DNA of 50,633 bases, taken from assembly GCA_045596985.1 (NCBI GenBank), contig JAZODM010000022.1:1-50633 (forward strand), read 5' to 3'. The translations under genes and the position numbers were made by a program. The stretch comes from Clostridia bacterium (GTDB lineage: Bacteria; Bacillota; Clostridia; UMGS1883). Below the pieces are notes generated by a model, which did not search any database, was not told the DNA's origin, and saw only the letters and a program-made list of their open reading frames with translations. Below are positions 1 through 14,139 of this stretch, piece by piece (position 1 is the first letter of the stretch; the number at the start of each line of letters is the position of its first letter).

Positions 1-43
1 GACAATATCCTACGATTTGTATATAATATAAATTGTAGGATAT
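1..43 (+). promoter_or_regulatory. sigma-A promoter of phd-doc overlapped by a long imperfect palindrome (probable autoregulatory operator)
   Basis: (TT)GACA truncated at 1-4, 17-bp spacer, TATAAT at 22-27; inverted repeat ATATCCTACGATTTGTAT (5-22) / ATATAAATTGTAGGATAT (26-43), 16/18 match. Confidence 0.7.
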
Positions 44-72
44 ATTTATTGTATAAATAATAGGAGGTAGTT

Positions 73-315
73 ATGAATATAAATACTGAAACAATCACAA
101 CTATGACAGAAGCAAATCAGAATTTTTCAAAGGTTGCTAAAGTGGCAGAGAACAACGGTCAGGCTGTTATATTCAAAAACAACAAGCCGAAATTCTTGCT
201 TATTGATGTGGATTCAAATTCATATTTTGATATTTCTGATGATGAAAAAATTGATGTGGCAGCAAAGAGGATTATGAATAGATTTAAACCTGCTTTTGAG
301 GAGTTAGCAAAATGA
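73..315 (+). CDS. phd: Phd/YefM family antitoxin
   Basis: 80 aa with TMTEANQNFSKV...VIFKNNKP Phd-type N-terminus; AGGAGG RBS; 4-nt overlap with a Doc toxin gene. Confidence 0.85.
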   Translation: MNINTETITTMTEANQNFSKVAKVAENNGQAVIFKNNKPKFLLIDVDSNSYFDISDDEKIDVAAKRIMNRFKPAFEELAK

Positions 316-689
316 TTAAATTAAGTAAGGAAAAAGTGCTTTTACTTCACCAACTTATAGCACAAGAAACGGGCGGCGGTGTTGGTGTAAGAGATGTTGG
401 TCTTTTAGAAAGTGCTCTTAATAATGCTTATGCTACTTTTGGTGGTGAAGAACTTTATAAGACTAAAGAAGAAAAAGCGGCTAGTCTTGGATTTTCGTTA
501 ATATCTAATCATGCATTTGTTGATGGAAATAAAAGAATTGGTGTTTATGTTATGCTTACTTTTTTAGAGGCGGAAGGCATAAAAATGAATTGCACAAATG
601 AAGAGGTTGTAGATTTTGGTTTATCGGTTGCTTCGGGCGATATGAAATATGACGAGATTTTAGAATGGATAAATAAATTTAAAAAATAA
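312..689 (+). CDS. doc: Doc/Fic family toxin (death-on-curing)
   Basis: Doc-type Fic motif HAFVDGNKRIG; GVRDVGLLESAL N-terminal motif; 125 aa. Confidence 0.92.
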   Translation: MIKLSKEKVLLLHQLIAQETGGGVGVRDVGLLESALNNAYATFGGEELYKTKEEKAASLGFSLISNHAFVDGNKRIGVYVMLTFLEAEGIKMNCTNEEVVDFGLSVASGDMKYDEILEWINKFKK

Positions 690-701
690 TTTTTTTAATC
701 C

Positions 702-759
702 GGTCTTGACACGAACTTGACATCAAAAAGGTTTGCATCTAAACCTTATGTGTCGCAAT
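702..759 (+). repeat. Module-boundary repeat, copy 1 (putative recombination site)
   Basis: GGTC-TTGACACGAAC(706-716)-N18-GCATCTAAACCTTATG(735-750)-TGTCGCAAT; 732-759 matches 7937-7964 at 26/28. Confidence 0.85.
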
Positions 760-825
760 TGATAGGTGGACAAACATGCTCGTGGATAGAATGAAATGAA
801 AATTAATTAAAATATGCTTTGCATC

Positions 826-854
826 TTGATTTTCAGCGAGAAACATGTTAAAAT
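826..854 (+). promoter_or_regulatory. sigma-A-like promoter upstream of the membrane protein/GT2/SLH operon
   Basis: TTGATT-N17-TAAAAT with extended -10 TG; a second candidate TTGACA-N17-CAAAAT at 906-934. Confidence 0.45.
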
Positions 855-1007
855 ATTCTAGAATTGAGATTTGTGAAAAAATCAAGAAAATTTTAAAGAA
901 GGGGCTTGACAGGTATGCTTGCAGGATGCAAAATCGTTCATACACACATACATATGACAGAGTCCGCCTTTTCTTCGTATATCACAAATAAAATACAAGT
1001 TGAGAAT

Positions 1008-1059
1008 AAACCCGCTTGCGAAGCATTTTAAGATGTTCCGCAGGTGGTTTTTGCTTTTT
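1008..1059 (+). terminator. Terminator-like hairpin in the 5' leader (possible attenuator)
   Basis: AAACCCGCTTGCG...CGCAGGTGGTTT stem (G-U pairs, one bulge) followed by TTGCTTTTT, about 40 nt before the TTG start at 1091. Confidence 0.5.
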
Positions 1060-1090
1060 GGGAAAAAGGCATTTTTTAGGGGGTGGTTCC

Positions 1091-2395
1091 TTGATAAGAA
1101 AAATTTTGCGCAGTGTGGCAAAGCATACAGTAGTTTTTGCTGTAGTGTTGTTCCTGTTGTGGCTGCTTTTGTTTCTGTCAGCACTGATACCCAATGACGC
1201 AATTCGGGACAATATGGAAAAGAGTGCGCTTGCCTATAAAGAGCGAACCGCCTTTGAATTTACAAGCGGTGATAAGCTCAATTCCGTTGCAGACCACTAT
1301 GCGGATTCAATATGGCTGAATGTTTCGTGGAATATGGGCGAAGGCAATCAGCTTGTATCTTCAATCCGCACAAATTATTATGATGGCGGAGAGCTTGGCG
1401 AAAATGCAGGACTGTATCTTTCGGTAACGCAAGGAGCAGCGCCGAATAACGACTACACACGCTATTGGCACGGAACGGCAATGTTTATACGGCTCGGACA
1501 TCTATTTACCGATGTTGAAGGCGTGAGGCTAATCGGATTTATTGCCTTCCTGCTTCTTGTCGGGCTATCGCTTTTTATCTTTGCACGAAAAAAGCATTGG
1601 GATTTAGCGGTAATACTGGCTCTGTCGCTTGCAGCGGTGCAGATATGGAACATCAGGCTGAGTATGGAATATCAACCGGCATTTATCCTTGCCTTTGTGC
1701 TTATTCCGTTGTTTCTCGTTTTGGAACGGCGAGGCGATAAATGGCTGACGATATTAAGCATTGTAAGCGGAACGACAGTTGCGTTCTTTGATTTTCTCAC
1801 AACCGAAACGGTAACAATACTGCTTCCACTCGCTCTTGTGATTGCAGTGAGGGCAAAGGAAGATAGACTTGGCAGCTTAAAGGAAAATCTGCTTCTGCTC
1901 TTAAAATGCGGACTATGCTGGGGCTTTGCCTACGGCGGAGCATTTATAGTTAAATGGCTTGTTGCAAGTATGGTAACAAATGCTAATGCATTTGAAACGG
2001 CTCTTTCTTCCGCTATGGAGCGTATGGGAAATAAGGTGGAAATGTATGCTGACAAGCCAAAATCAATTCTTTCTTCCCTTGCGGCAAATTTGTCAATGCT
2101 CTTTGGAAGTGAAATAAGAGTTGATGCAGGACGGACAGCATTCGGAATAATATTTACTATCCTGATTTTATTGTCCGTTTGGTATCTGTTCAGAGGCAAG
2201 CAAAAGAAACCTGCTGCGGCATTATTGCTGCTTGGACTTGGATTTCTTGTACTGATAAGATGTCTGGTATTAAATAACCATTCATACCTGCATTGCTTTT
2301 TTACATACAGAGCACTTGCGACGATGGTGTTTGCCCTGCTTTCGGCAATGTGGCTGAACATCGAGCTGCCTCAAAGGAAAGGGCGGCGGAAATGA
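1091..2395 (+). CDS. Multi-pass membrane protein, probable GT-C-like glycosyltransferase
   Basis: About 10-11 hydrophobic segments, large loop after TM1 with DYTRYWHGT, FFDFLTTET motif; coupled to a GT2 gene; start moved to TTG 1091 after AGGGGGTGG RBS. Confidence 0.6.
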   Translation: MIRKILRSVAKHTVVFAVVLFLLWLLLFLSALIPNDAIRDNMEKSALAYKERTAFEFTSGDKLNSVADHYADSIWLNVSWNMGEGNQLVSSIRTNYYDGGELGENAGLYLSVTQGAAPNNDYTRYWHGTAMFIRLGHLFTDVEGVRLIGFIAFLLLVGLSLFIFARKKHWDLAVILALSLAAVQIWNIRLSMEYQPAFILAFVLIPLFLVLERRGDKWLTILSIVSGTTVAFFDFLTTETVTILLPLALVIAVRAKEDRLGSLKENLLLLLKCGLCWGFAYGGAFIVKWLVASMVTNANAFETALSSAMERMGNKVEMYADKPKSILSSLAANLSMLFGSEIRVDAGRTAFGIIFTILILLSVWYLFRGKQKKPAAALLLLGLGFLVLIRCLVLNNHSYLHCFFTYRALATMVFALLSAMWLNIELPQRKGRRK

Positions 2396-3084
2396 TGGAA
2401 TTTACATTTTTAATGCCCTGTCTCAATGAAGCGGAAACATTGGAGTTTGCAATAAACGAAGCCAAAAGTGCCATAGAGCGATTAAAGCTCGATGCGGAAA
2501 TTTTAATTGCCGACAACGGCTCGGTGGACAACTCGGCAGAAATTGCAATAAAAAACGGTGCGAGAGTTACAAACGTAGAAAAGCGTGGCTACGGCTCGGC
2601 ACTAATAGGTGGTATCAAAGCTGCCAAAGGAAAATATATCATAATGGGCGATTGTGACGGAAGCTATGATTTTGCACATCCCGATTTGTTTGTGCAGGAG
2701 CTAAGGAAAGGTGCAAAGCTCGTTATGGGAGACCGCTTCAAGGGTGGAATTGAAAAAGGCGCAATGTCTTTCAGTCACAAATGGGGTATCCCGTTTCTCT
2801 CGGCATTAGCAAGGTGGCGGTTTAAGACAGACATCCGCGATTTCCACTCAGGAATGCGTGGCTTTGACAGAGAAACTGCATTAAAACTTAATCTTGTCTG
2901 TCCCGGTATGGAATTTGCGACCGAAATGATTGCAAGGTTTGCACAAAGCAGAGAAAAAATTGTGCAGGTTCCGACACCATTAAGATGCGACAGACGCTCC
3001 GGTGAGCCTCACCTTCGCACAGTAAGGGACGGCTTCCGTCATTTGAAATTTATATTGTTTAATAAATTGGAGGTAAGAAAATGA
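2392..3084 (+). CDS. Family 2 glycosyltransferase (DPM1/GtrB-like polyprenol-phosphate sugar synthase)
   Basis: FLMPCLNE, IADNGSVD, GYGSAL, MGDCDGSYD (DxD), DFHSGMRGF, GMEFATEM; ATGA overlap at 2392. Confidence 0.88.
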   Translation: MMEFTFLMPCLNEAETLEFAINEAKSAIERLKLDAEILIADNGSVDNSAEIAIKNGARVTNVEKRGYGSALIGGIKAAKGKYIIMGDCDGSYDFAHPDLFVQELRKGAKLVMGDRFKGGIEKGAMSFSHKWGIPFLSALARWRFKTDIRDFHSGMRGFDRETALKLNLVCPGMEFATEMIARFAQSREKIVQVPTPLRCDRRSGEPHLRTVRDGFRHLKFILFNKLEVRK

Positions 3085-6000
3085 AAAAACGATTGAAAGG
3101 ACTTGCCTGCTGGTGGTTAGTTCTTGTAATGCTGGTCAGTACGCTGGCAACTCCGGCTATGGCAGCATCGTCCAACTGGATATACATATATTCCGGAACA
3201 GAGCCGTTGACCTCCGGGGATATACTACTTGTAGTTTCGGATGTTGAGAGCCTAACAGTTCCCGAAGGTGGAGATATATCCACATTAGCGGCATCTTCGG
3301 AGGGCGCAACGCTGACAGGATGGAACCTTTGGGAATTTTCGGGTGACTACGGCAGCGGTTTTGTTAGAATTGCAAATAAACAGTGGACAGAGGACGCAGA
3401 CTATACACTCACCGCTGACGATATCACCAACTACGCAAACGGAAAGTGTTTTGTTTTTGAGCCGCTGTATGAGTACTATGCAGATGTTGGTGTTTACATC
3501 GGTACGGATATACTTAGTAGCTATACTTCCGTTGATTCAGACGATATTAATAATCGACAAATCGCTCTTGATTCTGCTCTCAATGAACAAGATACGCTTT
3601 CAGACCGTGCAACAAATAACCTTATCGGCTGGAAACTTTGGGAGGTTGATTCGGGACGTACGCAGGATTATGATTTTATCGAAGCTGATGGAACACTGCT
3701 TTCTGTGGATAATGATGTAAGAAACCCACTTCTTGAAGCAATGTATGCAACTGCAGGTGTTGCAACAAATGACGAACCGCTTAGTGCAGATTCCACACCG
3801 GAATTTAACTGGGAAAAGCCGATATACTTAAACCTTGGTGAAGCACTCAATAAACAAAGTGATGTTATGGATGCTCTTGAAACTCCCGCAGGAAAGGTGC
3901 TTGACGGCTGGAAGCTTTGGAAATTCGGCGATAGCGGCTGGGTTCATGAAGTAGAAAATATCAGTCCGAAACCAGTTGCGAGCGATTATGCTGTTACCTA
4001 TGAGGATGTTACAACCATTGGTGACATTGACTACGACTATTTTCTGATTCTTGAACCGCAATGGACATCCGCACCTCCCCATGAACACCCCGTTTGCGGA
4101 GAAGAGCATACCGACATTGGCGACCACGCGGGCGAGTGTGCGAATGTCGAGTGGACAGCGTGGGACGGCAAGACATCTTTCCCCGGCGGCAGTGTGTATC
4201 TGACCAAAGATATTCCCCTTACTATTACCCTTACCATTTCCAGCGGCACGGTCAACCTCTGCCTGAACGGACAAAGCATAAATGTCGAGAACAAAGCGGC
4301 TATCACGGTCTCAAGTGGTGCGACGCTGAATATCTGCGACTGTACAGGCGGTGGAACGATCAATGCCCCTGGCTCGTTTGGCTACGGCATTTATAGCGGT
4401 TTTGGCAATTCCATCGTCAATATCTACGGTGGCACGATTACCTCCGATAACAACGGCGTCTACAATAAAGGCGAGGTTACCGTGTGCGGCGGTCAAATTA
4501 CTTCCACCAACGGCAGTGCAGTAAACAACGATGCTGGTACCGTAACTGTCTGCGGCGGTACGATAAATGGTAAGACCAGAGGCATCTATAACAACGGCAC
4601 ACTGTATCTTGAAGGTGCGCCAGCCATCACCAGCAACACCGACGGTATCTATCTTGCAAGCGGCAAGGTCATCAACATCGGTGAGGGTGGTCTGAGTAAT
4701 ACCGTGGCGTATACTGTGAAAACAGTCAGTGATCCCACAACAGATGCACCGATAAAGATCGTTGCGGAAAACGACACGGATTACAGTGCAAAGTTTGCGC
4801 CTGTTAATACAAACAGCTATCGAGTTGTCCGTGGTGATGATGACTGCCTTTATCTGGCGGTGAAGCCTAAAACCTATACCGTTTCCTTTGACGCAAACGG
4901 CGGCAGTGGTACAATGGCAGAGCAGACAATCAATTTTGGTACTGCAACCGCACTTTCTGAAAACACCTTTACAAGAACAGGTTACACATTTGCAGGCTGG
5001 AATACAAACGCAGACGGCACAGGTACAGACTATGCCGACAAAGCATCGGTAACAGATATTGCAAGTGCAGGCGAAAGCATAACACTTTACGCAAAATGGA
5101 GCAAAATTCCGGCAACAGCACCGAGAATTACATCTGCTCCTCAGGGCTTTGAGGGTGCAAACGCTTTAACCTACGGAAGCATTGGTGCAGATAAAAAGTT
5201 AAGCGTTGCGACAGATGCAGATGAAAATGAATATACCGTTACATATCAGTGGTATAAAAACACTCAAAACTCCAAAGACGGTGCAACCGCTGTTTCAGAC
5301 GGCACATCAAAAGACCTTGCGGTTGAAAGTGGTCTTGTAGCAGGAGATTATTACTACTACTGCAAAATTACCGTTACGAGAAAAGACAACGATGAAGCTA
5401 CAACAGTTGATACCGATTTGGTAAAGGTTACTGTGAACAAAGCAACACCGGGCATTTCCGCACCTACGGCAAAGACAGGTCTTGTATATGACGGAACTGA
5501 TAAGGCTCTTGTAAATGCAGGAACAACCACCGGCGGTGAAATGCAGTACAGCCTTGACGGAAATACTTGGGGAACTGCAATTCCGCAAGGCAATTCAGCA
5601 GGCTCATATACAGTTTATTACAAGGTTGTCGGCGGAGATAACTACAATGATAACGAGGGCGGAACTGTTAATGTAACTATTTCCAAAGCGTCGCAAAGCG
5701 CTCCTGAAACGCCCGTTGCGGTTAATGAAACAATCAAGGCAAAAGCAGATGGTAAGCTGACAGGTGTAACATCCGATATGGAATACAAGCTTGAAGGTGC
5801 GAGCGAATATACTGCAATTTCTGAAACTGAAATCGCAAACCTTGCCGCAGGGACCTACCTTGTAAGATACAAAGAAGATGCTAATCATTTTGCAGGTACG
5901 GATAAAAAGGTTATCATTGAAGACGGTGCTATGATTACCGCAACCTTTAACTCAAACGAAGGTACAGCGGTAGAGAGCAAGACATGCGAATATAATCAGT

Positions 6001-7730
6001 CGATTACTGCTCCGGCTGAACCCACAAAAGAAAACTTTGTGTTTGCAGGATGGTATAAGGATAAAGAATGCCTTAACCTTTGGAATTTCAATAGCATATT
6101 GACAGAAGATATTACCCTTTATGCAAAATGGAATGACAAGCCTGTTTACTCCATCAGCGGCAGAGTGACAGATGGTGAATCCGGTCTTGGCGGTATTACT
6201 GTAACATTAAAGCAAGGCAATACCATTATTGCAACAACCACAACAGCAGCAGACGGCAGTTATTCATTCATTACGGAGGACGGACTTTATAACATCGTTG
6301 CTGAAAAGGTAGAAAACGATAACAGCACCATAAAGACTGTTAAAATCGAAGTAACTGAAAGTACTAATGTAAATGATGTTGTATTCGTTGCAACTGACAT
6401 TAATTCCGAGCTTGAAATCAAATCTGATACACCTCAGATTATTGTCGGTGGACTTGATGAAGAAGCACAGTCTGTATCATCTAGTAATGGTAATGCCGAT
6501 GTTACGGTGAAAATGACCGTTGAAAGCCAAGAAGACATAACCGGTAGCAATAACGTTGAGGGACAACAGCAGAGACAGAATGAGCAGAAAGAAATAAAGA
6601 AAGAGTCCGGCAACAGATATATTCAGTTTATTGAAATCAACCTAACACAAAGCATCAGCGGGGCAGAAAGCACGAAGTTGGAGGAAACCTCCGGTCTTAT
6701 TGAAATTATTATTCCTTTTGAAAAAGGCGATAAGAGAAACATTACAGTTTATCGTTATCACGGCTCTGTTGCTGAAAAACTTGGCGAAGGTATCGAAAAT
6801 GCCAATAGTGACGGCGAGTATTTCGAGGTAAAAGAAAATCACATCGTTGTATATGCAAAGAAATTTTCCACCTATGCAATTGGTTATGATTTGCCGAGCG
6901 GAGGCGGTGGTTCTTCCGTAACACGCTACACTGTTAAATTCGATACAGACGGCGGAAGCAGTGTATCAAGTGCGACAGTTACTAAAAATGCAAAAGTTAC
7001 CGAGCCGAAAGCTCCTGAAAAAGAAGGCTATACATTTGGTGGTTGGTACACAGATGAAGAGCTTACCGAAAAGTATGACTTTGACAGCAAGGTAACTAAG
7101 AACTTCACTCTCTTTGCTAAGTGGGATAAGCACGATGATGAGCAGCCCGGCACAGACACACATAACTGCCCGTCATTGGCATTTGATGATCTTGACATTA
7201 CAAAGTGGTATCACCTTGACACCGACTATGTAATCGAAAATGGTATCTTTAAGGGAACAACGGAAACAACCTTTGAACCCAATTCTGCTCAGACAAGAGC
7301 AATGATGGTTACAGTTCTTTATCGTGCAGAGGGCGAGCCTGCTGTAAACCGCAGTATTCCTTTCGCAGATGTGGATATGGGGGCATATTATGCAAATGCA
7401 GTTATCTGGGGACAACAGAATGGAATCATCAAAGGCTATTCCGAAACAGAGTTCGGTCCTGATGATAAGATTACCCGTGAACAGATTGCGGCAATTATGC
7501 ATCGCTACGCACAGTACAAGGGAATAGATGTGAGCGTAGGAGAAAATACAAATATCCTCTCTTATGACGATTTTGACAGCATTTCCGAGTACGCAATTCC
7601 TTCAATACAATGGGCTTGCGGTTCAGGTCTTATTAAAGGCAGAACTGAAAGCACACTCAATCCGAAAGATAATGCTACAAGAGCAGAAATAGCAGCGATA
7701 CTTCACAGATTTATTGAATCGAATAAGTAA
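3081..7730 (+). CDS. Large secreted S-layer-homology (SLH) surface protein with InlB B-repeats, beta-helix-like region and Ig-like domains
   Basis: Signal peptide ending AMA; B-repeats (YTVSFDANGG...GYTFAGW...LYAKW, three clear copies); three C-terminal SLH motifs (TRAMMVT, ITREQIAAI, ATRAEIAAI). Confidence 0.88.
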   Translation: MKKRLKGLACWWLVLVMLVSTLATPAMAASSNWIYIYSGTEPLTSGDILLVVSDVESLTVPEGGDISTLAASSEGATLTGWNLWEFSGDYGSGFVRIANKQWTEDADYTLTADDITNYANGKCFVFEPLYEYYADVGVYIGTDILSSYTSVDSDDINNRQIALDSALNEQDTLSDRATNNLIGWKLWEVDSGRTQDYDFIEADGTLLSVDNDVRNPLLEAMYATAGVATNDEPLSADSTPEFNWEKPIYLNLGEALNKQSDVMDALETPAGKVLDGWKLWKFGDSGWVHEVENISPKPVASDYAVTYEDVTTIGDIDYDYFLILEPQWTSAPPHEHPVCGEEHTDIGDHAGECANVEWTAWDGKTSFPGGSVYLTKDIPLTITLTISSGTVNLCLNGQSINVENKAAITVSSGATLNICDCTGGGTINAPGSFGYGIYSGFGNSIVNIYGGTITSDNNGVYNKGEVTVCGGQITSTNGSAVNNDAGTVTVCGGTINGKTRGIYNNGTLYLEGAPAITSNTDGIYLASGKVINIGEGGLSNTVAYTVKTVSDPTTDAPIKIVAENDTDYSAKFAPVNTNSYRVVRGDDDCLYLAVKPKTYTVSFDANGGSGTMAEQTINFGTATALSENTFTRTGYTFAGWNTNADGTGTDYADKASVTDIASAGESITLYAKWSKIPATAPRITSAPQGFEGANALTYGSIGADKKLSVATDADENEYTVTYQWYKNTQNSKDGATAVSDGTSKDLAVESGLVAGDYYYYCKITVTRKDNDEATTVDTDLVKVTVNKATPGISAPTAKTGLVYDGTDKALVNAGTTTGGEMQYSLDGNTWGTAIPQGNSAGSYTVYYKVVGGDNYNDNEGGTVNVTISKASQSAPETPVAVNETIKAKADGKLTGVTSDMEYKLEGASEYTAISETEIANLAAGTYLVRYKEDANHFAGTDKKVIIEDGAMITATFNSNEGTAVESKTCEYNQSITAPAEPTKENFVFAGWYKDKECLNLWNFNSILTEDITLYAKWNDKPVYSISGRVTDGESGLGGITVTLKQGNTIIATTTTAADGSYSFITEDGLYNIVAEKVENDNSTIKTVKIEVTESTNVNDVVFVATDINSELEIKSDTPQIIVGGLDEEAQSVSSSNGNADVTVKMTVESQEDITGSNNVEGQQQRQNEQKEIKKESGNRYIQFIEINLTQSISGAESTKLEETSGLIEIIIPFEKGDKRNITVYRYHGSVAEKLGEGIENANSDGEYFEVKENHIVVYAKKFSTYAIGYDLPSGGGGSSVTRYTVKFDTDGGSSVSSATVTKNAKVTEPKAPEKEGYTFGGWYTDEELTEKYDFDSKVTKNFTLFAKWDKHDDEQPGTDTHNCPSLAFDDLDITKWYHLDTDYVIENGIFKGTTETTFEPNSAQTRAMMVTVLYRAEGEPAVNRSIPFADVDMGAYYANAVIWGQQNGIIKGYSETEFGPDDKITREQIAAIMHRYAQYKGIDVSVGENTNILSYDDFDSISEYAIPSIQWACGSGLIKGRTESTLNPKDNATRAEIAAILHRFIESNK

Positions 7731-7744
7731 ATAGCACAACTTTC

Positions 7745-7774
7745 AAGGGCATACCGCAACTTAGGTATGCCCTT
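7745..7774 (+). terminator. Intrinsic terminator after the SLH gene
   Basis: AAGGGCATACC-loop-GGTATGCCCTT perfect 11-bp stem. Confidence 0.75.
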
Positions 7775-7821
7775 AATTTATAAAATCATATTGTTCAATC
7801 TGGGAAATTTGTTTGTAATTA

Positions 7822-7850
7822 TTGTTTAAATGTTTTGTTTATGATATAAT
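7822..7850 (+). promoter_or_regulatory. sigma-A promoter pointing across repeat copy 2 into the phosphatase gene
   Basis: TTGTTT-N17-TATAAT with TGn extended -10 (TGATATAAT 7842-7850). Confidence 0.6.
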
Positions 7851-7893
7851 AATTAGAAAGTGCTTTAAGTAATATTAAAAAGCAGGTTAGAGA

Positions 7894-7964
7894 GATTTTT
7901 TGGTCCTAACACGACATGAACATGTCACCCAAAAGATTTGCATCTAAACCTTATGCCTCGCAAT
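7894..7964 (+). repeat. Module-boundary repeat, copy 2
   Basis: GATTTTTTGGTC-N5-ACGACATGAAC(7911-7921)-N18-GCATCTAAACCTTATG(7940-7955)-CCTCGCAAT. Confidence 0.85.
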
Positions 7965-8027
7965 ATAAAGAATGTCGAATATTATAGAAAAATGGGTTTT
8001 ATCACAAAAACAATCAGGAGGAATATT

Positions 8028-8669
8028 ATGGCAACATTACTTTTGGTGAGACATGGCGAAAGTGAAGCGAATAGAAGTGGTACTTTTGCCGGACAGACAG
8101 ATGTACAACTGCTGCACAAAGGGATAGAGCAGGCGAGGAAAACAGCGGAATACATAGCAGAACATTATACCGTAAGCAGGGTGTATGCAAGTGATTTGAA
8201 GCGCGCTTACAAAACCGGAAGAGTGATTTCCGATTTGTTGCAAGTTGATTTGATTTCGAATGAAAAACTGCGAGAAATCAATGCAGGAGAATGGCAGGGG
8301 AAGATGTTTGATGAACTTGTTGCCAACTATCAGGAAGATTATGCTTGTTGGCTTAGTGATATTGGAAACTGTACTTGTACCGGTGGGGAAAGTGTAAAAC
8401 AACTGGGAGTGCGTGTTGTAGAAGCGCTGACGGACATCGCAGAAGATAACATTGGAAAAACGGTGGTGATTGCAACACATGCCACGCCGATACGTGTACT
8501 GCAATGCCTTCTGCAGGGCCTTTCTCTTGATGCTATGAAAGATATACCTTGGGTTTCCAATGCATCTGTCACGGAATTGACTTATGAAAGCGGGAAATGG
8601 AACTTTGTTAATGTTGGAGAAGACAAACATTTATCGGAACTGAAGACGTCTTTCCCTGCCAATGTATAA
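8028..8669 (+). CDS. Histidine phosphatase (phosphoglycerate mutase family)
   Basis: LVRHGES, YASDLKRA, LREINAGEWQG, GGES, IATHA, NASVT motifs; start at ATG 8028 after AGGAGG. Confidence 0.9.
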   Translation: MATLLLVRHGESEANRSGTFAGQTDVQLLHKGIEQARKTAEYIAEHYTVSRVYASDLKRAYKTGRVISDLLQVDLISNEKLREINAGEWQGKMFDELVANYQEDYACWLSDIGNCTCTGGESVKQLGVRVVEALTDIAEDNIGKTVVIATHATPIRVLQCLLQGLSLDAMKDIPWVSNASVTELTYESGKWNFVNVGEDKHLSELKTSFPANV

Positions 8670-8710
8670 AATGTAAGGATATGGTTTCATTGTGTTGAGC
8701 GATGTTTAAA

Positions 8711-8753
8711 GTTTGGTGATGACTTGACGCGAACTACAAAGTGGGAAGCATCT
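8711..8753 (+). repeat. Module-boundary repeat, copy 3 (partial: left box plus GCATCT only)
   Basis: CTTGACGCGAACT (8723-8735, 12/13 to copy 1); box-to-core gap 13 bp, then GCATCT (8748-8753); diverges afterwards (GAATTCA). Confidence 0.55.
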
Positions 8754-8760
8754 GAATTCA

Positions 8761-8794
8761 CCAAAAAACCTCGGAAAATTCCGAGGTTTTTTGG
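8761..8794. terminator. Bidirectional intrinsic terminator between convergent genes
   Basis: CCAAAAAACCTCGGAA-AA-TTCCGAGGTTTTTTGG perfect 16-bp inverted repeat. Confidence 0.85.
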
Positions 8795-8806
8795 CTATAT
8801 AAGGTA

Positions 8807-10045
8807 CTAGAAGTTTTGCAATAAGTATTTCTCTGCTTGAGCACACCACAGTCCGTTGTTTTCTTTAACGAGCTTGTCAAGAGCCTTAAATCTATCATCA
8901 GTTTCTCCAAGTTTTTCAAAGTCGGTGAGTGCTGTGAGAGGGAGTTCAATATGTGTATATATAAGCTTTTTGCCTCCCGGTATTTTTGGCAGATTAACGG
9001 TTGTGTCAATTGCTGTATCAATGCCGCCAATATGAGTTATCATAACAGAGGGATCAAGACGATTTTCGCCGATAAGGTCAACGATATCTCTCATGTCTTC
9101 GGGGGTGCTTCCGCTTGTTCCTGTAACGTGGTGCTGTGCATAATGAACATTATAAAAATTGAAGTTTGCACTGAATTTCTTATCAAGAGGTCCTGCAAAG
9201 AAGTTAAGAGAACCGTCAAATCCTAAAATAGAATCGCCAAGCTCAACAACTGCAGGAACAGGTGCGTATACAAACACATCATCAAAACCTGTACCGCCGG
9301 AAATATCCATAAGCTCGTCCTTGTCAGATGTTGCTGCAAACACAAGATCAATTCCATCTTCCTTTGCTTTTTCAGAAGGGAAGATAGAAGCGGCGCGCTC
9401 AAGTCTTGCCCGGTCAAGGTCTGTTACCACTACCATAGAGGGCTTGACATTTCCGTGAAGGGCAATATCAATGGCAACAAGTCCCATAGGACCGCAACCG
9501 GCAAGAATTGCAACCTTTCCGCCCGGCTTTATGCCGGTGACAGGGTTGTAGTTTTCATCAAGATGTAAACTTGCTTTGTATCCTCTTATAACGCAAGATG
9601 CAGGCTCAATAAGAGAACCATTAAAATAGGAATCGCTATTTAATTTTATTAAGAAATTGTTATCAAGGATGTGCTCATAAACAATAGAGTATGTAGAAAC
9701 CCCACCAATATCCTCAAAGGTATATCCTACAGTCTCATATCCTCCAAGATATGAAAGAACCGGCGGCATAACAACCTTATCGCCAACAGAAAATTTATTT
9801 TTCCATTTATCGCCGACTTCAACGACCTCTGCACAAAATTCGTGACCGAGGATAATCGGATGTTCTGCTACATTATCAGGAACTCTTATATGATTTTTGC
9901 CCTGCATAATTGTCTTGTGTGTTGACATACATACACTGTCAGAAATAATCTTAATCAGAAGTTCGCCTGATGTTATGGGACGAAGCTCAAATTCTTCCAA
10001 TCTTGCATCGTTGGCTCCGTAAAGACGGGCTGCTCTTGTTTTCAT
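8807..10045 (-). CDS. Zinc-binding MDR dehydrogenase, L-sorbose-1-phosphate reductase (SorE)-like
   Basis: RLYG, SDSVCMSTHK, PIILGHEF, AGCGPMGL, FFAGP, HIGG, IPGGKKLIYT; 412 aa. Confidence 0.8.
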   Translation of the reverse strand: MKTRAARLYGANDARLEEFELRPITSGELLIKIISDSVCMSTHKTIMQGKNHIRVPDNVAEHPIILGHEFCAEVVEVGDKWKNKFSVGDKVVMPPVLSYLGGYETVGYTFEDIGGVSTYSIVYEHILDNNFLIKLNSDSYFNGSLIEPASCVIRGYKASLHLDENYNPVTGIKPGGKVAILAGCGPMGLVAIDIALHGNVKPSMVVVTDLDRARLERAASIFPSEKAKEDGIDLVFAATSDKDELMDISGGTGFDDVFVYAPVPAVVELGDSILGFDGSLNFFAGPLDKKFSANFNFYNVHYAQHHVTGTSGSTPEDMRDIVDLIGENRLDPSVMITHIGGIDTAIDTTVNLPKIPGGKKLIYTHIELPLTALTDFEKLGETDDRFKALDKLVKENNGLWCAQAEKYLLQNF

Positions 10046-10054
10046 ATTATCACC

Positions 10055-10924
10055 TTATATCCTTCCTGCACTGCCAAATGTTCTGAGTTTCTCGCGCACA
10101 ACTTCCTTCATCATCTTCATGGCATCCTCATACACAAGGAAAGGCCAAGTTGAGGGATTTGTCATAGTGTTTAAATAATTCTTAAGTCCCTGATTAAGAG
10201 CATAAAGGACATCGGAATAAATGTTTATTTTTGTAATTCCGTGATGAATTGCGTTTTGCATCTGGTCATCGGGGGTTCCACTTCCACCGTGAAGTACAAG
10301 GGGTCTGTCGCATACAGCAGTTATTGCATCAAGTCTATCGATTCTAAGCTCGGGTGTCTTTTGATATACGCCGTGTGATGTGCCGATAGCAACCGCAAGG
10401 GCATCAACATCGGTAATTTCTACAAATTTTGCTACCTCCTCAGGGACGGTAAGACTTTCACCGGGGTCGGTGTCTTCACCTGTTTCACTGATGCTACCAA
10501 CACTTGCGTTACCGACATGTCCCAATTCAGCTTCAACTGTAATACCCTTTTTGTGCGCATATTCAGTAACAATGGCGGTGTTCTTTGCGTTTTCATCAAA
10601 GGAAAGTACCGAGCCGTCATACATAACAGAACTGTATCCGTTGTCGCAACCATATTTTATGAAGTCAATATCGGTTGCGTGGTCCATATGAAGACAAATG
10701 GGAATATTAAAATATTTGGAAGCACCTTCTATCATAGAGGAAAGAAGCTGAAGATTTCTACCTTGTGTATCTACGCCCAGCGTCATAAGAAGTGCGGGTG
10801 ATTTTTCCTCTTCGCAAGTTTCCAAAACAGCTTTCATCATTTCATAGTTGCTTACATCGAATGCAGGAATAGCATAATGGTTTTTCTTTGCATCTGCAAG
10901 CATTTCTTGCATGGTAACTAACAT
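10055..10924 (-). CDS. Class II fructose/tagatose-bisphosphate aldolase
   Basis: LHMDH, SVMYDGS, VEAELGHVG, LAVAIGTSHG, LVLHGGSG, KINI. Confidence 0.92.
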   Translation of the reverse strand: MLVTMQEMLADAKKNHYAIPAFDVSNYEMMKAVLETCEEEKSPALLMTLGVDTQGRNLQLLSSMIEGASKYFNIPICLHMDHATDIDFIKYGCDNGYSSVMYDGSVLSFDENAKNTAIVTEYAHKKGITVEAELGHVGNASVGSISETGEDTDPGESLTVPEEVAKFVEITDVDALAVAIGTSHGVYQKTPELRIDRLDAITAVCDRPLVLHGGSGTPDDQMQNAIHHGITKINIYSDVLYALNQGLKNYLNTMTNPSTWPFLVYEDAMKMMKEVVREKLRTFGSAGRI

Positions 10925-10956
10925 ATTTATCGCTCCTTCATTTAATCTATATATGA

Positions 10957-11031
10957 ATTATAACATCGCTTTTAACATTTGTCAAATACAAATGTTAAAA
11001 CGTTGACTTAAAAATCAATTGATGATATAAT
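10957..11031. promoter_or_regulatory. Divergent sigma-A promoters with a perfect palindromic operator
   Basis: Minus strand TTGACA(10985-10980)-N17-TATAAT(10962-10957); plus strand TTGACT(11003)-N17-TATAAT(11026); operator TTTTAACATTTGT-CAAAT-ACAAATGTTAAAA (10970-11000) covers the leftward -35. Confidence 0.8.
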
Positions 11032-11063
11032 AAAATCACAAAAACCAAGTAAAGGTGATTAAT

Positions 11064-12002
11064 ATGGAATTTCAGAAAAAACATATGCAGGAAGCGGCAA
11101 TTTTATATTATGAAAAAAAACACACTCAGAACGAAATTGCAAAAATAATGAATTTATCCCGCCAGACCGTTTCTAAATTATTAAATGATGCGGTGAAAGA
11201 AAAAATAGTGGAAATCAAAATCCACGATCCCGAAATCACTTGCACAGAACTTGAACAGGCGATTTGCGTTAAATTTGGAATTAAAAATGCAGTGATATGC
11301 GGTGTCAGTGCCGATGATAAATCGCTCTCCCTGTTGATGACTGTAAAAAAAGCAGCAAACTATATTCAATCTATTATAGAAAAAGGAAATCAGAAAATTG
11401 CCATTTCTTGGGGACGCACTATTCAGAGACTTATTTGTGAATTTAGTGATATAAATACTCCGGATAATATTGTTTTTCCGCTTTTTGGTGCAACAGACCA
11501 GGAGCAGGCATATTTTTTATCAAATGAACTGGCAAGAAGTTTTGCAGATAAAATAGGTGCAAAAGTAAAATATGCATGGTTTCCTTACCGACCTGACTCT
11601 ATTGATGATTGTAAACTTTTTAAAAATACTTCTTATTACAGAAAGCTTTACGATTTGTGGAGTGATATAGATGTTGCAATAATCGGCATAGGAAACAGTG
11701 AAATAATTCAAGCGTTTGGAAAGGTATTCGGATATAACGAAAAATGCACATCTGCGATAGGAGATATTTCTACGCATTTCTTTAATGCTGAGGGAAAATT
11801 TGTAGATATATATGAAAATACACTGTGTGCTTCAAAAGATAATTTAAAAAACGCAAAGCAAACAATCGCTATTGCATCCGGTAAAGATAAAACAGAGGCG
11901 ATAGTGGGTGCTCTGCGGACTCAAATTATTGATACATTAATTACCGATGAATATACTGCAAAAAGGATATTATCTTTTTCAAACAAAAGCAATAAACAGT
12001 AA
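11064..12002 (+). CDS. SorC/DeoR-family sugar-binding transcriptional regulator
   Basis: AAILYY...TQNEIAKIMNLSRQTVSKLL HTH; IAISWGRT, AIIGIG, AIGDI, LITDE sugar-binding domain; start ATG 11064 (GTG 11055 possible). Confidence 0.9.
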   Translation: MEFQKKHMQEAAILYYEKKHTQNEIAKIMNLSRQTVSKLLNDAVKEKIVEIKIHDPEITCTELEQAICVKFGIKNAVICGVSADDKSLSLLMTVKKAANYIQSIIEKGNQKIAISWGRTIQRLICEFSDINTPDNIVFPLFGATDQEQAYFLSNELARSFADKIGAKVKYAWFPYRPDSIDDCKLFKNTSYYRKLYDLWSDIDVAIIGIGNSEIIQAFGKVFGYNEKCTSAIGDISTHFFNAEGKFVDIYENTLCASKDNLKNAKQTIAIASGKDKTEAIVGALRTQIIDTLITDEYTAKRILSFSNKSNKQ

Positions 12003-12013
12003 CCGGCAATGTT

Positions 12014-12079
12014 GATTTTTTGGGTCTGAATTTGACATGAGCTTCACTTAAAAATTGGCTGCATCTAAACCTTATGTGT
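12014..12079 (+). repeat. Module-boundary repeat, copy 4
   Basis: GATTTTTTGGGTC-N5-TTGACATGAGC(12032-12042)-N18-GCATCTAAACCTTATGTGT(12061-12079). Confidence 0.85.
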
Positions 12080-12091
12080 TGTATTCAACAA

Positions 12092-12114
12092 AAAAAGGTG
12101 CATTTAAACCATAT
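12092..12114 (+). repeat. Decayed tandem copy of the repeat core
   Basis: AAAAAGG-TGCATTTAAACCATAT versus copy 1 AAAAAGGTT-TGCATCTAAACCTTAT (14/16 in core). Confidence 0.55.
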
Positions 12115-12206
12115 ATCCCTTATAAAATTTAAACTCAGCGATATAAATTCCTGAAGGAATTTGCGATATGTGCCTGCGGCATGCAGTATAAGAAAGGGGC
12201 AGCACT

Positions 12207-12722
12207 ATGAAAGCAAAAATCAGTGCACAGGCTTTTTACGAAAAGATTTATAATATCCTTGGCGATGTGACACCGCTTGAGATTGATTGCGGAGGGCTTT
12301 GTAATGGCGCATGCTGCGAGGTAACGGACGAAATTACGGGAATGTACCTTTTTCCGCAGGAGAATGTGATGTATGCTGATATGCCTGACTGGGGCAGGAT
12401 ATATGATATTGATTTTACATATGACGGCAAAAAGTGTGTTGACCTTTTTACCTGCACAGGGCAGTGCGAAAGGGAAAAACGACCGCTTTCGTGCAGAATA
12501 TTTCCGCTGACGCCGTATGCACACCGCGGCGCGAAACTTAAAATAATTATGGATGTGCGCGGCAGGGGAATGTGTCCGCTTGCAACTGCGATGAAGGTTG
12601 AGGATTTATCACCGCAGTTTGTAAAAAAGGTAACAGAGGCAATGACTCTCTGTATGCACGTTGAAGAAACGCGCGAATTTATATACGCACTTACAGAGGA
12701 ACTTGACAAGATTGTTTTATGA
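12207..12722 (+). CDS. Cys-cluster hypothetical protein (YkgJ/CxxCxxCC-like)
   Basis: DCGGLCNGACC, RPLSCRIFP, CPL motifs. Confidence 0.6.
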   Translation: MKAKISAQAFYEKIYNILGDVTPLEIDCGGLCNGACCEVTDEITGMYLFPQENVMYADMPDWGRIYDIDFTYDGKKCVDLFTCTGQCEREKRPLSCRIFPLTPYAHRGAKLKIIMDVRGRGMCPLATAMKVEDLSPQFVKKVTEAMTLCMHVEETREFIYALTEELDKIVL

Positions 12723-12736
12723 AAGAGAGGGAATTT

Positions 12737-13645
12737 ATGAGCAGTTGTTATTTTGCAATTATTGACCTTGGCTCCAATTCTGTCAGAATGAGCGTGAATG
12801 AGCTTGAGAAAAACGGTAACTGGCGCGTAGTTGAAAAGCTGCGCTGCACAGTGCGCCTGAGTGAAGGGATGAGTAGTGACAACTTCCTTAAAGAAGAACC
12901 GATGGCGCGCGTTATCGAAACGGTAAAGGCCTTTTGTGATAAGGCAAGGGAGTATAAATGTGTATCGATTGCCGCAATTGCCACCGCAGCACTGAGAAAT
13001 GCTGCGAATAAGGAGCTTTTCATTGCACGTGTGAAAAAGGCTGCAGGAATTGAGTTTGAGATTATAAGTGGTGAGGACGAGGCGTATTTCAGCTATCTTG
13101 CCGTGCGAGAAACAATAGGGATAAAGGACGGAGTGATTTTTGACACCGGCGGCGGCAGTACGGAAATTACCCTTGTTAAAAATTCCTGCGTTGTTCACAG
13201 TATAAGTTTGCCGCTGGGTGCAGTTGTGATGACAGAAAAAATGGCACACAAAAGCCAGATGCAGCTTTATAAATATGTTATGTCATATATAGGGGCGATA
13301 GATTGGCTTGATGAGTGCGAGTCGCTGCCCGTATACGGAATAGGCGGCAGTGCGCGCACAATGGCAACGCTTTATAAAAAGCGTGCAGTGGGGACAGATG
13401 AGCTTGACGGAATGAAAATTCCCTACGGTGCAGTTGCAAAAATTTACGAAAATATATATAATACCCCTGTGGAAAAACGAAAAGATATTAAAGGTATGGA
13501 TATTTCGCGTGCCGATATAATCCTCGCAGGAGTTACGCCTGCAAAGGTACTTATGGATATGATTGGAAGCCCGTGCGCATATATTTGCGCGTCAGGAGTA
13601 AAAGAGGGCGTATTTTTCAGAATGAAGGAAGAAATGCAAAAATGA
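12737..13645 (+). CDS. ppx: Ppx/GppA family exopolyphosphatase
   Basis: AIIDLGSNSVR, ATAALRNA, IISGEDEA, DTGGGSTE, GIGGSAR, RADII, GVKEG. Confidence 0.88.
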   Translation: MSSCYFAIIDLGSNSVRMSVNELEKNGNWRVVEKLRCTVRLSEGMSSDNFLKEEPMARVIETVKAFCDKAREYKCVSIAAIATAALRNAANKELFIARVKKAAGIEFEIISGEDEAYFSYLAVRETIGIKDGVIFDTGGGSTEITLVKNSCVVHSISLPLGAVVMTEKMAHKSQMQLYKYVMSYIGAIDWLDECESLPVYGIGGSARTMATLYKKRAVGTDELDGMKIPYGAVAKIYENIYNTPVEKRKDIKGMDISRADIILAGVTPAKVLMDMIGSPCAYICASGVKEGVFFRMKEEMQK

Positions 13646-14139
13646 GTTTGAATGTTGTATTAGTGGAGCCTGAAATTCCGCAGAACACCGGAAATATTGT
13701 GCGTACGTGTGCCGCAACGGGGGCAAGACTTCATATAGTAAAGCCGATGGGCTTTGAAATTGATGATAAAAAGTTAAAGAGGGCAGGTCTTGATTACTGG
13801 CACTTTCTCAATATTCAGTATTACGAAGGCTTAGATGACTTTTTTGAGAAAAACAAAGGTGGACGGTTTTTTTACCTTAGCTCCAAAGCGCCTGCATCGT
13901 ATACGGAGGTAGAATACCAGGATAATGATTTCCTGATGTTTGGAAAGGAAACGAAGGGCCTTCCCGAAAAGCTTTTGATTGATAATCCCGAGCGTGCAGT
14001 ACGTATACCGATGATAAGCAGTGCAAGATGTCTGAACCTTTCAAACAGTGTTGCAATCGTTGTTTATGAGGCACTGAGGCAGAATGAATTTAAGGCACTT
14101 ACTAAAGAATCAGATTATTTATATGGAATAATAGATTAA
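13642..14139 (+). CDS. trmL: tRNA (cytidine/uridine-34-2'-O)-methyltransferase
   Basis: VVLVEPEIPQNTGNIVRTC, KRAGLDYW, FGKETKGLP, RIPM...LNLSNSV; start ATG 13642. Confidence 0.93.
   Translation: MSLNVVLVEPEIPQNTGNIVRTCAATGARLHIVKPMGFEIDDKKLKRAGLDYWHFLNIQYYEGLDDFFEKNKGGRFFYLSSKAPASYTEVEYQDNDFLMFGKETKGLPEKLLIDNPERAVRIPMISSARCLNLSNSVAIVVYEALRQNEFKALTKESDYLYGIID

Follow-up and report, generated by a model that had tools for sequence, protein, structure and literature searches.

The window analysed here, the whole 50,633-nt stretch of contig JAZODM010000022.1 from a Clostridia bacterium (assembly GCA_045596985.1), contains three directly repeated intergenic elements. They are members of a large family found in gut Clostridia, which we call 'cassette-head' elements. 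When complete, such an element is composed of a tail module (L), a 17–18-nt A-rich linker, an invariant 27-mer and, often, a leader with Spo0A-box sequences. Elements of this anatomy lie in one orientation, whole units bounded by them are shared between genomes, and the point of exchange maps to the inside of the core. Promoter activity, control by Spo0A and the mechanism of recombination are inferences. With a little less than even confidence, we regard the element as a portable expression head (a promoter or operator with a ribosome-binding site) that is also a recombination junction.

Copies of the element in the window

The core, GCATCTAAACCTTATG, is present in three exact copies on the forward strand (Table 1). 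At up to two mismatches, the window contains three matches, and none of 100 shuffles reached three (shuffle mean 0.03). In each copy the core is preceded, at 18 bp, by a box of the form TTGACAYGARC and, further upstream, by a T-run with GGTC (690-705, 7896-7905 and 12016-12026). In copies 1 and 3, the T-run begins 1 to 14 nt after the stop codon of the upstream gene (687-689 for copy 1, in which the phd-doc stop codon abuts the T-run, and 12000-12002 for copy 3). These features, together with the intergenic placement of all copies in a single orientation, are in agreement with an earlier description of the window made from its letters alone (hereafter, the sequence-only reading). The partial copy that it reported corresponds to a truncated element made up of a box and GCATCT (8724-8753); similarity stops after GCATCT, and a terminator-like hairpin comes next. 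Its statement that the following 38 kb are devoid of copies also holds, as no further core was found at up to two mismatches in 12.1-50.6 kb of the window. A profile search of the window added to the exact cores only a second, degenerate core, GCATTTAAACCATATA, near 12100 (12100-12115, + strand; profile match 12090-12116, E = 0.35), which corresponds to the type C arrangement described below. Conservation reaches past the 16-mer core through nn-TCGCAAT in copies 1 and 2; in copy 3, TCGCAAT is replaced by a degenerate TTGTATT (12079-12085). The leader of copy 2 contains one exact Spo0A-box sequence, TGTCGAA (7973-7979), and no exact box was found at the other window copies.

Conservation and anatomy of the element family

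The conserved unit of the family is the 27-mer TT-GCATCTAAACCTTATG-nn-TCGCAAT. At up to one mismatch, the 16-mer was found in 25 of 61 relatives, often in same-strand clusters spaced 0.2-1.4 kb. A 24-letter pattern was detected in 26 of the 87 genomes examined from the order and in 52 of 401 sampled from the class (26 of 216 genera, up to 18 copies per genome); the reversed control gave 0. A scan of public species genomes returned at least 120 stretches with the pattern. Among the matches listed, all records are metagenome-assembled genomes (MAGs), those naming a source are from animal guts, and the labels include Clostridia, Congzhengia, Ructibacterium, Oscillospiraceae and others. One viral contig contained the 24-mer. 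The 16S rRNA gene was not assembled in five carrier MAGs. No mention of the 16-mer and three sub-strings was found in the literature text searched, which did not cover supplements.

The anatomy was derived from 232 distinct 216-nt contexts taken from fetched loci. Positions -2 to +24 are conserved at 95-100% except for +16/+17; many of the loci were picked by the 24-mer, so TCGCAA is partly ascertained, and copies found by the 16-mer only show TCGCAA too. The +16/+17 dinucleotide is TG in 111, CC in 81 and TA in 18 of the 232 copies. It is thus a two-state position (TG or CC, with rare intermediates) inside an otherwise invariant site, and no covariation with any flank position was detected (maximum mutual information 0.060; 95% point of the null 0.071). 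The left arm of a 7-6-7 inverted repeat, AAGGTTT-GCATCT-AAACCTT, is variable, with 51-57% conservation at -6 to -3. Neighbouring cores up to 3 kb apart were on the same strand in 89 cases and on opposite strands in none. The 113 representative downstream genes fall into 97 Pfam families, including housekeeping families such as TsaD and a ParA/NUBPL-type (Mrp-like) ATPase, and the first open reading frame (ORF) of the units has a median length of 158 aa (129 clusters).

The tail module L consists of a T-run near the upstream stop codon, tCCTAAC and then TTGACACGAAC, 17-19 nt before the core. It is found to the left of the core in 98 of 232 copies (up to three box mismatches), and the distance is exactly 18 nt in 75 of these. 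The other left contexts are the 3' end or untranslated hairpins of a DUF559 unit, described below (42/232), an iteron-type ORF-less unit (9/232) and various other sequences (83/232). The gap from the stop codon of the first ORF to the next core is 42-47 nt in 30 of 76 cases, so that L starts immediately behind the stop codons of unrelated genes. No terminator lies between the units of arrays, where most stop-to-core gaps are ~43 nt. On the right side of the core, we distinguished type A contexts with a Spo0A-box leader (76/232), type B contexts with a hairpin, then the iteron unit and then another core (14), type C contexts with a second degenerate core (35) and others (107). L also occurs without a core, at 49 sites versus 64 with a core, and the leader types that follow CGAAC there are the same as those that follow TCGCAAT.

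Several ORF-less sequences are associated with these contexts. A unit of ~235 bp lies between two cores at L035:9029-9290 (G029:C65), and others are at L036:4135-4372 and in L034, L042 and L043 (loci, genomes and contigs are denoted L, G and C). The ~235-bp unit contains a hairpin, four copies of GCGATAT (a 7-8-mer), each with a small hairpin, and four reverse complements, and it gave weak Gut-1 Rfam matches (E = 0.4). Other ORF-less copies have different 7-8-mers of the GCTAAATT, ATGAATTG or AACTTCAC type, each with matching inverse repeats, and this variation resembles compensatory change within a long helix with interruptions. The GCGATAT motif at 12138-12169 of the window is related to the iteron-type unit and recurs in many genomes of the genus. 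A 45-nt stretch at 12129-12175 of the window, with 85-98% matches at several places in G021, G023, G024, G025 and G029, among others, represents a separate short repeat family.

Exchange of units at the core

Core-bounded units are common to genomes at 90-98% identity without any other homology between the loci. Examples are units of 764 bp (92.7%, L034/L072), 515 bp (96.5%, L087/L116) and 537 bp (98.3%, L105/L122), and a unit of 1855 bp that is 98.1% identical between genomes of two families (L035/L041). In pairs of loci that share the upstream flank only (n = 50), the box is kept at 0.92 and the linker at 0.82, and positions +18 to +29 are at 0.72, against a background of 0.71. The reverse was observed for pairs that share the downstream flank only (n = 21), in which +18 to +29 are kept at 0.91, with box (0.37) and linker (0.48) at background. 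The +16/+17 dinucleotide tracks neither flank (0.40 and 0.33; background 0.36). The linkage seen in upstream-only and downstream-only pairs therefore places the exchange point inside the invariant core.

The sequence-only reading had interpreted the repeats as recombination junctions left by serial integration at one locus. That they are junctions between units of differing history is supported by the breaks of homology at the elements, the units shared at 90-98% and the exchange point in the core; the integration mechanics were not substantiated. Among the 12 sequencing runs listed, all had shares of 0.10 or less and none was of RNA. Metagenome contigs (X1, X5, X7 and X12) placed on window positions 1-14000 at 90% likeness had high depth only at the repeats and the SLH sequence. 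Apparent joints (for example, from 761 to 12132 and from 7964 to 12132) were considered as excisions and rejected for the source strain, because extra letters lie between the two sides, equal to the core-then-hairpin-plus-GCGATAT arrangement of other organisms.

Mosaic structure of the window

The window is built of blocks that end at elements, each with a different nearest relative. In searches of the genus, positions 1-694 are 87% identical to G011, and the housekeeping flank of G011 is 71% identical. Positions 6920-7783, the 3' part of unit 2, match G029:C14 at 89% (flank 67%), and positions 8765-11979 match G028:C1 at 81% (flank 71%), with no core there in G028. Homologues of phd-doc with 79-87% DNA identity in seven other genomes of the genus are followed by different genes and have no element; an eighth locus contains a partial doc and L only. 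Between L058 and L059 (G011:C5 and G020:C8), a 1.9-kb indel is located directly upstream of phd-doc, with flanks of 95% and 87% and no core at the break.

Downstream of copy 3, the flank from 12193/12303 to 14000 was matched in 39 of 39 genomes of the genus at 67-87% identity, and the gene immediately upstream of the 171-aa gene varies. It is a CDF transporter gene in G025 and G032, an SDR gene in G016, G036 and G007 and another gene in G002; in G026, a core and a Dabb-type gene are found there, and in G030 a degenerate core and a kinase gene. The CDF transporter gene of G025 and G032 was not found in the source MAG, a 78% complete assembly. For a comparison at strain level, a scan of metagenomes with the 171-aa flank protein gave one locus, at 68% identity, and none of the same species.

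The genes of the modules (Table 1) are those that the sequence-only reading had named, save that the Phd match falls below Pfam's own cut-off for PhdYeFM_antitox, 29.8 bits. Sigma-70-like sites are located at 826-934, between copy 1 and the first gene of unit 2, and the ribosome-binding site of the histidine phosphatase gene is at 8015-8021.

Table 1. Elements, gene units and flanking features of the window
Feature	Positions	Strand	Details
Unit 1, phd-doc toxin-antitoxin module	73..689	+	Pfam PhdYeFM_antitox (26.9 bits), Fic/DOC
Element copy 1	690..759	+	nhmmer E = 7e-13; T-run 690-696, ccGGTC 700-705, box, A-rich linker 717-734, exact core 735-750, TG 751-752, TCGCAAT 753-759
Box of copy 1	706-716	+	TTGACACGAAC; core 18 nt downstream
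Unit 2	1016..7730	+	membrane protein (no Pfam family), GT2 glycosyltransferase, 1549-aa List_Bact_rpt + SLH protein
Element copy 2	7896..7979	+	nhmmer E = 6e-12; T-run 7896-7901, GGTCCTAAC 7902-7910, box, linker 7922-7939, exact core 7940-7955, CC 7956-7957, TCGCAAT 7958-7964
Box of copy 2	7911-7921	+	ACGACATGAAC; core 18 nt downstream
Unit 3, histidine phosphatase gene	8028..8669	+	Pfam His_Phos_1, E = 9e-54
Truncated element	8724..8753	+	box TTGACGCGAAC 8724-8734, 13 nt, GCATCT 8748-8753; L-module profile, weak, E = 0.38
Terminator-like inverted repeat	8761..8794	.	between convergent units; sequence and self inverted match
Unit 4, gene 1, zinc alcohol-dehydrogenase-type reductase	8807-10045	-	Pfam
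Unit 4, gene 2, class II aldolase	10055-10924	-	Pfam
Unit 4, gene 3, SorC-type regulator	11055-12002	+	Pfam
Element copy 3	12016..12085	+	nhmmer E = 2e-7; T-run 12016-12021, box, linker, exact core 12061-12076, TG 12077-12078
Box of copy 3	12032-12042	+	TTGACATGAGC; core 18 nt downstream
GCGATAT - small hairpin - GCGATAT motif	12138..12169	+	in leader of 171-aa gene
Conserved flank	12207..14000	+	171-aa protein (no Pfam family) first
Flank ORF, 308 aa	12719-13645	+	no annotation here
Next flank ORF	13573-14139	+	no annotation here

Other copies in the source genome

The source MAG (G000; 1.25 Mb, 79 contigs) contains 4 to 5 core copies according to the profile search. A fourth exact copy (G000:C34:1462-1477, - strand) is placed between a 5S rRNA gene and the gene for an Mrp/ApbC-type ATPase, upstream of the latter, so that the four copies precede a glycosyltransferase operon, a histidine phosphatase gene, the 171-aa gene and the Mrp gene. 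The single array at one locus assumed in the sequence-only reading was not borne out, as copies lie at several loci per genome. None of 14 Mrp orthologues in the genus has the core upstream, and the neighbour of the 171-aa gene varies; the head is hence not an inherited promoter of orthologues.

In the C34 copy, box and core are ~215 nt apart, the box being upstream, and a hairpin-rich insert lies between them. This insert (G000:C34:1480-1660, L004) has a predicted fold of -101.5 kcal/mol (z = -6.9) and is the ORF-less form of a DUF559 unit. The full unit is on G000:C59:10000-10500, where the sequence around the ribosome-binding site (GGATGAGGTGG) shows complementarity to the 3' end of the ORF. 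At G000:C34:1-363, part of a gene for an IS200/IS605-type TnpA (Y1 transposase) is convergent with the Mrp gene, 0.2 kb beyond it, with hairpin-rich DNA between. Two weak L-only heads are found 1.2 kb apart on the minus strand of G000:C60 (19008-19042 and 20246-20276), each with a ribosome-binding site and an ATG within ~40 nt, and they form a small core-less array.

Putative expression signals downstream of the core

A same-strand ribosome-binding site and ORF follow within 400 nt in 164 of 188 copies (38/188 in the opposite-side control) and within 150 nt in 134 (control 19/188), and start codons lie a median of 68 nt after TCGCAAT. The sequence TGNCGAA occurs at +25 to +90 in 102 of 232 copies versus 3 of 232 in a control region, with offset peaks at +32 and +42. 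In all 45 copies with at least two such boxes, the first two are exactly 10 nt apart. The second box is fused to a Shine-Dalgarno sequence, GAAAGGA(G), in 39 of 88 leaders, and in 37 of these 39 the start codon comes 3-10 nt later. At abrB-type promoters repressed by Spo0A, tandem 0A boxes are located downstream of the start; the two TGNCGAA boxes of the head, a direct repeat with a 3-nt gap near the presumed start, resemble this arrangement, but the head is multi-copy and mobile, unlike the abrB type. TGNCGAA is given as the Spo0A box in PMC7643835, and Spo0A_C is encoded in all five genomes tested (G000 and four other carriers).

In front of DUF559 genes, we read the head as a putative replacement of the canonical TTGACT-N17-TAATAT promoter of core-less genomes, both being at about equal distance to the same hairpin in the 5' untranslated region (UTR). 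In a by-eye comparison with consensus sequences, none of the sigma-54, H, E, K, F/G, D and extracytoplasmic function (ECF) promoters fitted. An ECF/RpoE-like reading (GAACTT ... TCTAA) was rejected, as its spacer is ~3 nt too long and many copies are without the box.

The sequence-only reading had named scattered copies upstream of co-regulated genes as the observation that would speak for a regulator site. This was found in part: copies are scattered, and the proportions that head a same-strand gene or carry Spo0A-box sequences are those given above.

The element as a proposed expression head and recombination junction

In the reading that we tentatively favour, the core and leader would constitute a promoter or operator region with a ribosome-binding site, and Spo0A~P would probably repress or modulate it. 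The core is taken as the exchange site because it is identical everywhere, and recombination within the 27-mer would join any upstream unit to any downstream unit. The outcome would be co-oriented single-gene arrays and mosaic loci such as window 691-12114. The simplest mechanism would be exchange between identical cores by homologous recombination or gene conversion, which the Vsr-like DUF559 nuclease may stimulate.

A number of observations weigh against this reading. None of seven candidate whole-unit indels between otherwise collinear loci had cores at the break, and 27 bp is at the lower limit for RecA-type exchange. A scan for a sigma-70 pair at a fixed position gave no canonical pair and no positional peak; the best fixed hexamers, TTGCAT and CAATAT separated by 17 nt, have three of six matches each. 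Copies 1 and 3 of the window have no Spo0A boxes, and 265 nt separate copy 1 from its gene, an interval that contains ordinary promoter-like sites. A promoter or operator does not normally have 25 invariant consecutive bases over at least 12 families, and such invariance fits better with the target of a recombinase, a nuclease or a guide RNA. A pure promoter model also fails for L, which is conserved and tied to the stop codons of unrelated upstream genes, and the L-only sites with core-type leaders point to paralogous heads or, alternatively, to joining at specific sites.

The long invariant core and L are only partly explained by an expression head exchanged through homology, and a trans-acting enzyme is to be kept in view, with DUF559 as the lead candidate. 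We consider it possible, though doubtful, that the elements belong to a cassette system distinct from integrons, in which the 27-bp head would serve as an expression signal and as a universal joining site for a trans-acting enzyme that moves units with no recombinase nearby, DUF559, with its putative ORF-less derivatives, being the best candidate.

Recombinases and comparison with known systems

An unlikely explanation is a dedicated site-specific cassette system in which core and L would form the site where an enzyme, with its gene elsewhere in the genome, breaks and rejoins the DNA. This enzyme could be an RNA-guided recombinase, a serine recombinase or a tyrosine recombinase, of the Xer type or another. 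Units would be excised and integrated in the manner of integrons or pdif modules, taking the expression signals with them. Such a system would fit the near-invariance of 25 of 27 positions over 232 copies, their patchy presence in 26 of 216 genera and their strictly direct orientation (89/89). It would also fit units of a single gene (median first ORF 158 aa), the exchange point inside the core and a two-state TG/CC dinucleotide linked to neither flank. Further points in its favour are the 49 L-only junctions with core-type leaders, the truncated copy that ends right after GCATCT (8748-8753) and the 7-6-7 inverted repeat present in many copies, the left arm of which, however, is not conserved. 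Other observations speak against such a system. The 148 non-redundant loci examined around cores (878 ORFs of at least 120 aa in 1.02 Mb) yielded no recurring recombinase family. In 10 array genomes, only one tyrosine recombinase (PF00589) lies within 5 kb of a core (G347:C93), and the serine recombinases near cores amount to one element adjoining two arrays; a dedicated recombinase beside the copies, as envisaged in the sequence-only reading, is not supported. No Y1 transposase gene was found near arrays in five genomes. In addition, no consensus fold was obtained, circles or empty sites could not be shown, and the cargo includes housekeeping genes such as those for TsaD and the ParA/NUBPL-type ATPase.

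The serine element encodes a large recombinase of 533 aa that is 97% identical in two species (L038, G032:C103, rc 4019-5620; L039, G002:C107, rc 4140-5741). It is located 3.2 kb upstream of the array, after an L-only site and before three variable ORFs and the core array. Its C-terminal 70 residues resemble region 2 of an ECF-type sigma factor.

The sequence-only reading had likened the repeats to integron or dif sites. As in integrons, the arrays are co-oriented and consist mostly of single small unrelated genes, the repeat starts near the stop codon, units are shared independently of their neighbours, and toxin-antitoxin pairs are among the cargo. However, integrons have an integrase adjoining the array and a single platform, whereas here no integrase adjoins the arrays and each genome has several short arrays and singletons. 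In place of the attC hairpin, RNAalifold predicted no pairs in 75 full elements (95 columns), which speaks against integron-like mechanics. The integron core sites have the consensus motifs R'' (RYYYAAC) and R' (GTTRRRY); L contains a YCCTAAC-like sequence, but the alignment has no GTTRRRY partner. Unlike in integrons, it is sequence and not structure that is conserved across families, and the conserved part is at the 5' end of the downstream unit, with ribosome-binding and Spo0A-box sequences. The survey by Cury et al. 2016 (PMC4889954) found no complete integrons among Firmicutes.

With Xer dif/pdif systems the elements have in common modules with short conserved sites of similar length (~27-28 bp) and without a recombinase gene of their own. 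The geometry is different, as the 28-bp dif/pdif site has inverted arms of ~11 bp and a 6-bp spacer, whereas the invariant 27-mer has no dyad symmetry. The sites that bound pdif modules alternate in orientation, but none of the 89 neighbouring pairs here is inverted, and a dif-like geometry is not upheld. The likeness of the core to what we take to be the dif consensus is limited to TTATGT. Miniature inverted-repeat transposable elements and insertion-sequence ends occur in either orientation, whereas the orientation of the elements to genes is fixed and their consensus has no inverted repeats. Correia elements, which are promoter-bearing repeats, have terminal inverted repeats and target duplications, neither of which was seen here.

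The nearest printed concept is the 'putative mobile promoter', a near-identical upstream sequence before non-homologous genes, found both inside single genomes and between genera, families and higher groups, for which the means of spread is given as unknown (PMC3575422). The elements resemble it in being near-identical upstream of unrelated genes and shared across genera and families. They differ from it in forming arrays, in having a tail module tied to the upstream stop codon, in the exchange of whole units and in their far tighter conservation (25 of 27 bases).

DUF559 as a candidate driver of exchange

The commonest neighbour of the core is a Vsr-like DUF559 protein of 120-150 aa (Pfam E = 1e-28), encoded directly upstream or downstream of the core in 25 of 232 copies. 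Among the 148 loci, 10 contain 11 DUF559 ORFs, always on the same strand, and the coding sequence is directly upstream of 13 of 232 cores (9 of at least 90 aa, 4 partial). The DUF559 unit has two 5' UTR hairpins and one 3' hairpin, and the 'hairpin unit' found, for example, on C34 is this unit lacking its ORF. In the source MAG, the full copy on C59 lies behind an L-only head. Because it is the commonest cargo and co-occurs with the element, DUF559 may be regarded as a candidate driver of exchange. The free-standing Vsr-like/EDxHD homing endonuclease genes are similar in several respects, i.e. a small nuclease gene with its own expression signals between genes, patchy spread, decayed ORF-less copies and the need for a long specific target. 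Two papers place a group I intron homing endonuclease in the DUF559/Vsr clade (PMC3424549) and propose a Caulobacter DUF559 protein as a Vsr-like endonuclease (PMC12907096). The nearest solved relative is 3hrl (E = 2e-10).

A more specific version, in which DUF559, its own unit being flanked by cores, would nick or cut the core and repair would copy units from another core-flanked locus in a homing-like manner, seems rather improbable. It would account for the absence of a recombinase and for a target that is long and invariant, and the hairpin units (42 of 232 left contexts, read as DUF559 3' ends or hairpins) would be decayed copies, as suggested by the presence of both forms in the source MAG. 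In the class sample, 35 of 52 genomes with the core and 42 of 347 without it contained DUF559 (odds ratio 15), an association confounded by shared ancestry, since related genomes are not independent, and expected if DUF559 is merely a frequent cargo. Moreover, 17 of the 52 core-positive genomes have no DUF559, most units are without the nuclease, and core-less DUF559 genes with ordinary promoters and terminators exist (L216, L219 and L223). Unlike in classical homing, the supposed target is not disrupted by the insertion and is kept on both sides of the gene.

RNA-level and regulatory explanations

It is very improbable that the element acts at the RNA level, as a processing site, a 5' UTR motif or a small-RNA target, with the mosaic as a by-product. 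Its constant position on the sense strand of the downstream gene near the ribosome-binding site, the lack of terminators between units with their ~43-nt gaps and the ORF-less structured units that also follow the head are compatible with this. A 4-pair stem (3-4 bp) around the A-run received weak support, with 58.7% of cells paired versus 49.5% in shuffles (0/500 equal) and a covariation score of 0.38 versus 0.02-0.20 in slid controls. Against it stand the RNAalifold result, the absence of any Rfam family at gathering score in the window or overlapping a core at E <= 1 in seven loci (L004, L034-L036, L095, L164 and L165), and the absence of a complement of the core elsewhere in G000 at up to two mismatches; the exchange points inside the core would also be left unexplained.

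The least probable explanation is an ordinary regulon site without gene movement, in which accessory regions are replaced over time and any intergenic region can terminate a BLAST match: although copies lie upstream of genes at several loci, Spo0A-box sequences are present and genus matches end near coding limits, as for any diverged intergenic DNA, the core is absent from 14 of 14 orthologous Mrp promoters, has only 4 to 5 copies in G000 and is invariant yet patchy over many families, whole units with both ends at cores are shared at 90-98% without flanking homology, and L travels with the upstream gene.

Implications

If the element is an expression head that also joins units, it would provide a way to build and reshuffle arrays of accessory genes in Firmicutes, where integrons are lacking, and every gene captured in this way would come already equipped with an expression head tied to sporulation control. 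A role that can be tested would also be assigned to the widespread domain of unknown function DUF559. Since the element is short, near-invariant and present in about one in eight of the sampled Clostridia genomes, it could mark recently exchanged genes in gut metagenomes, and it could serve as a compact portable expression signal for anaerobes that are hard to engineer.

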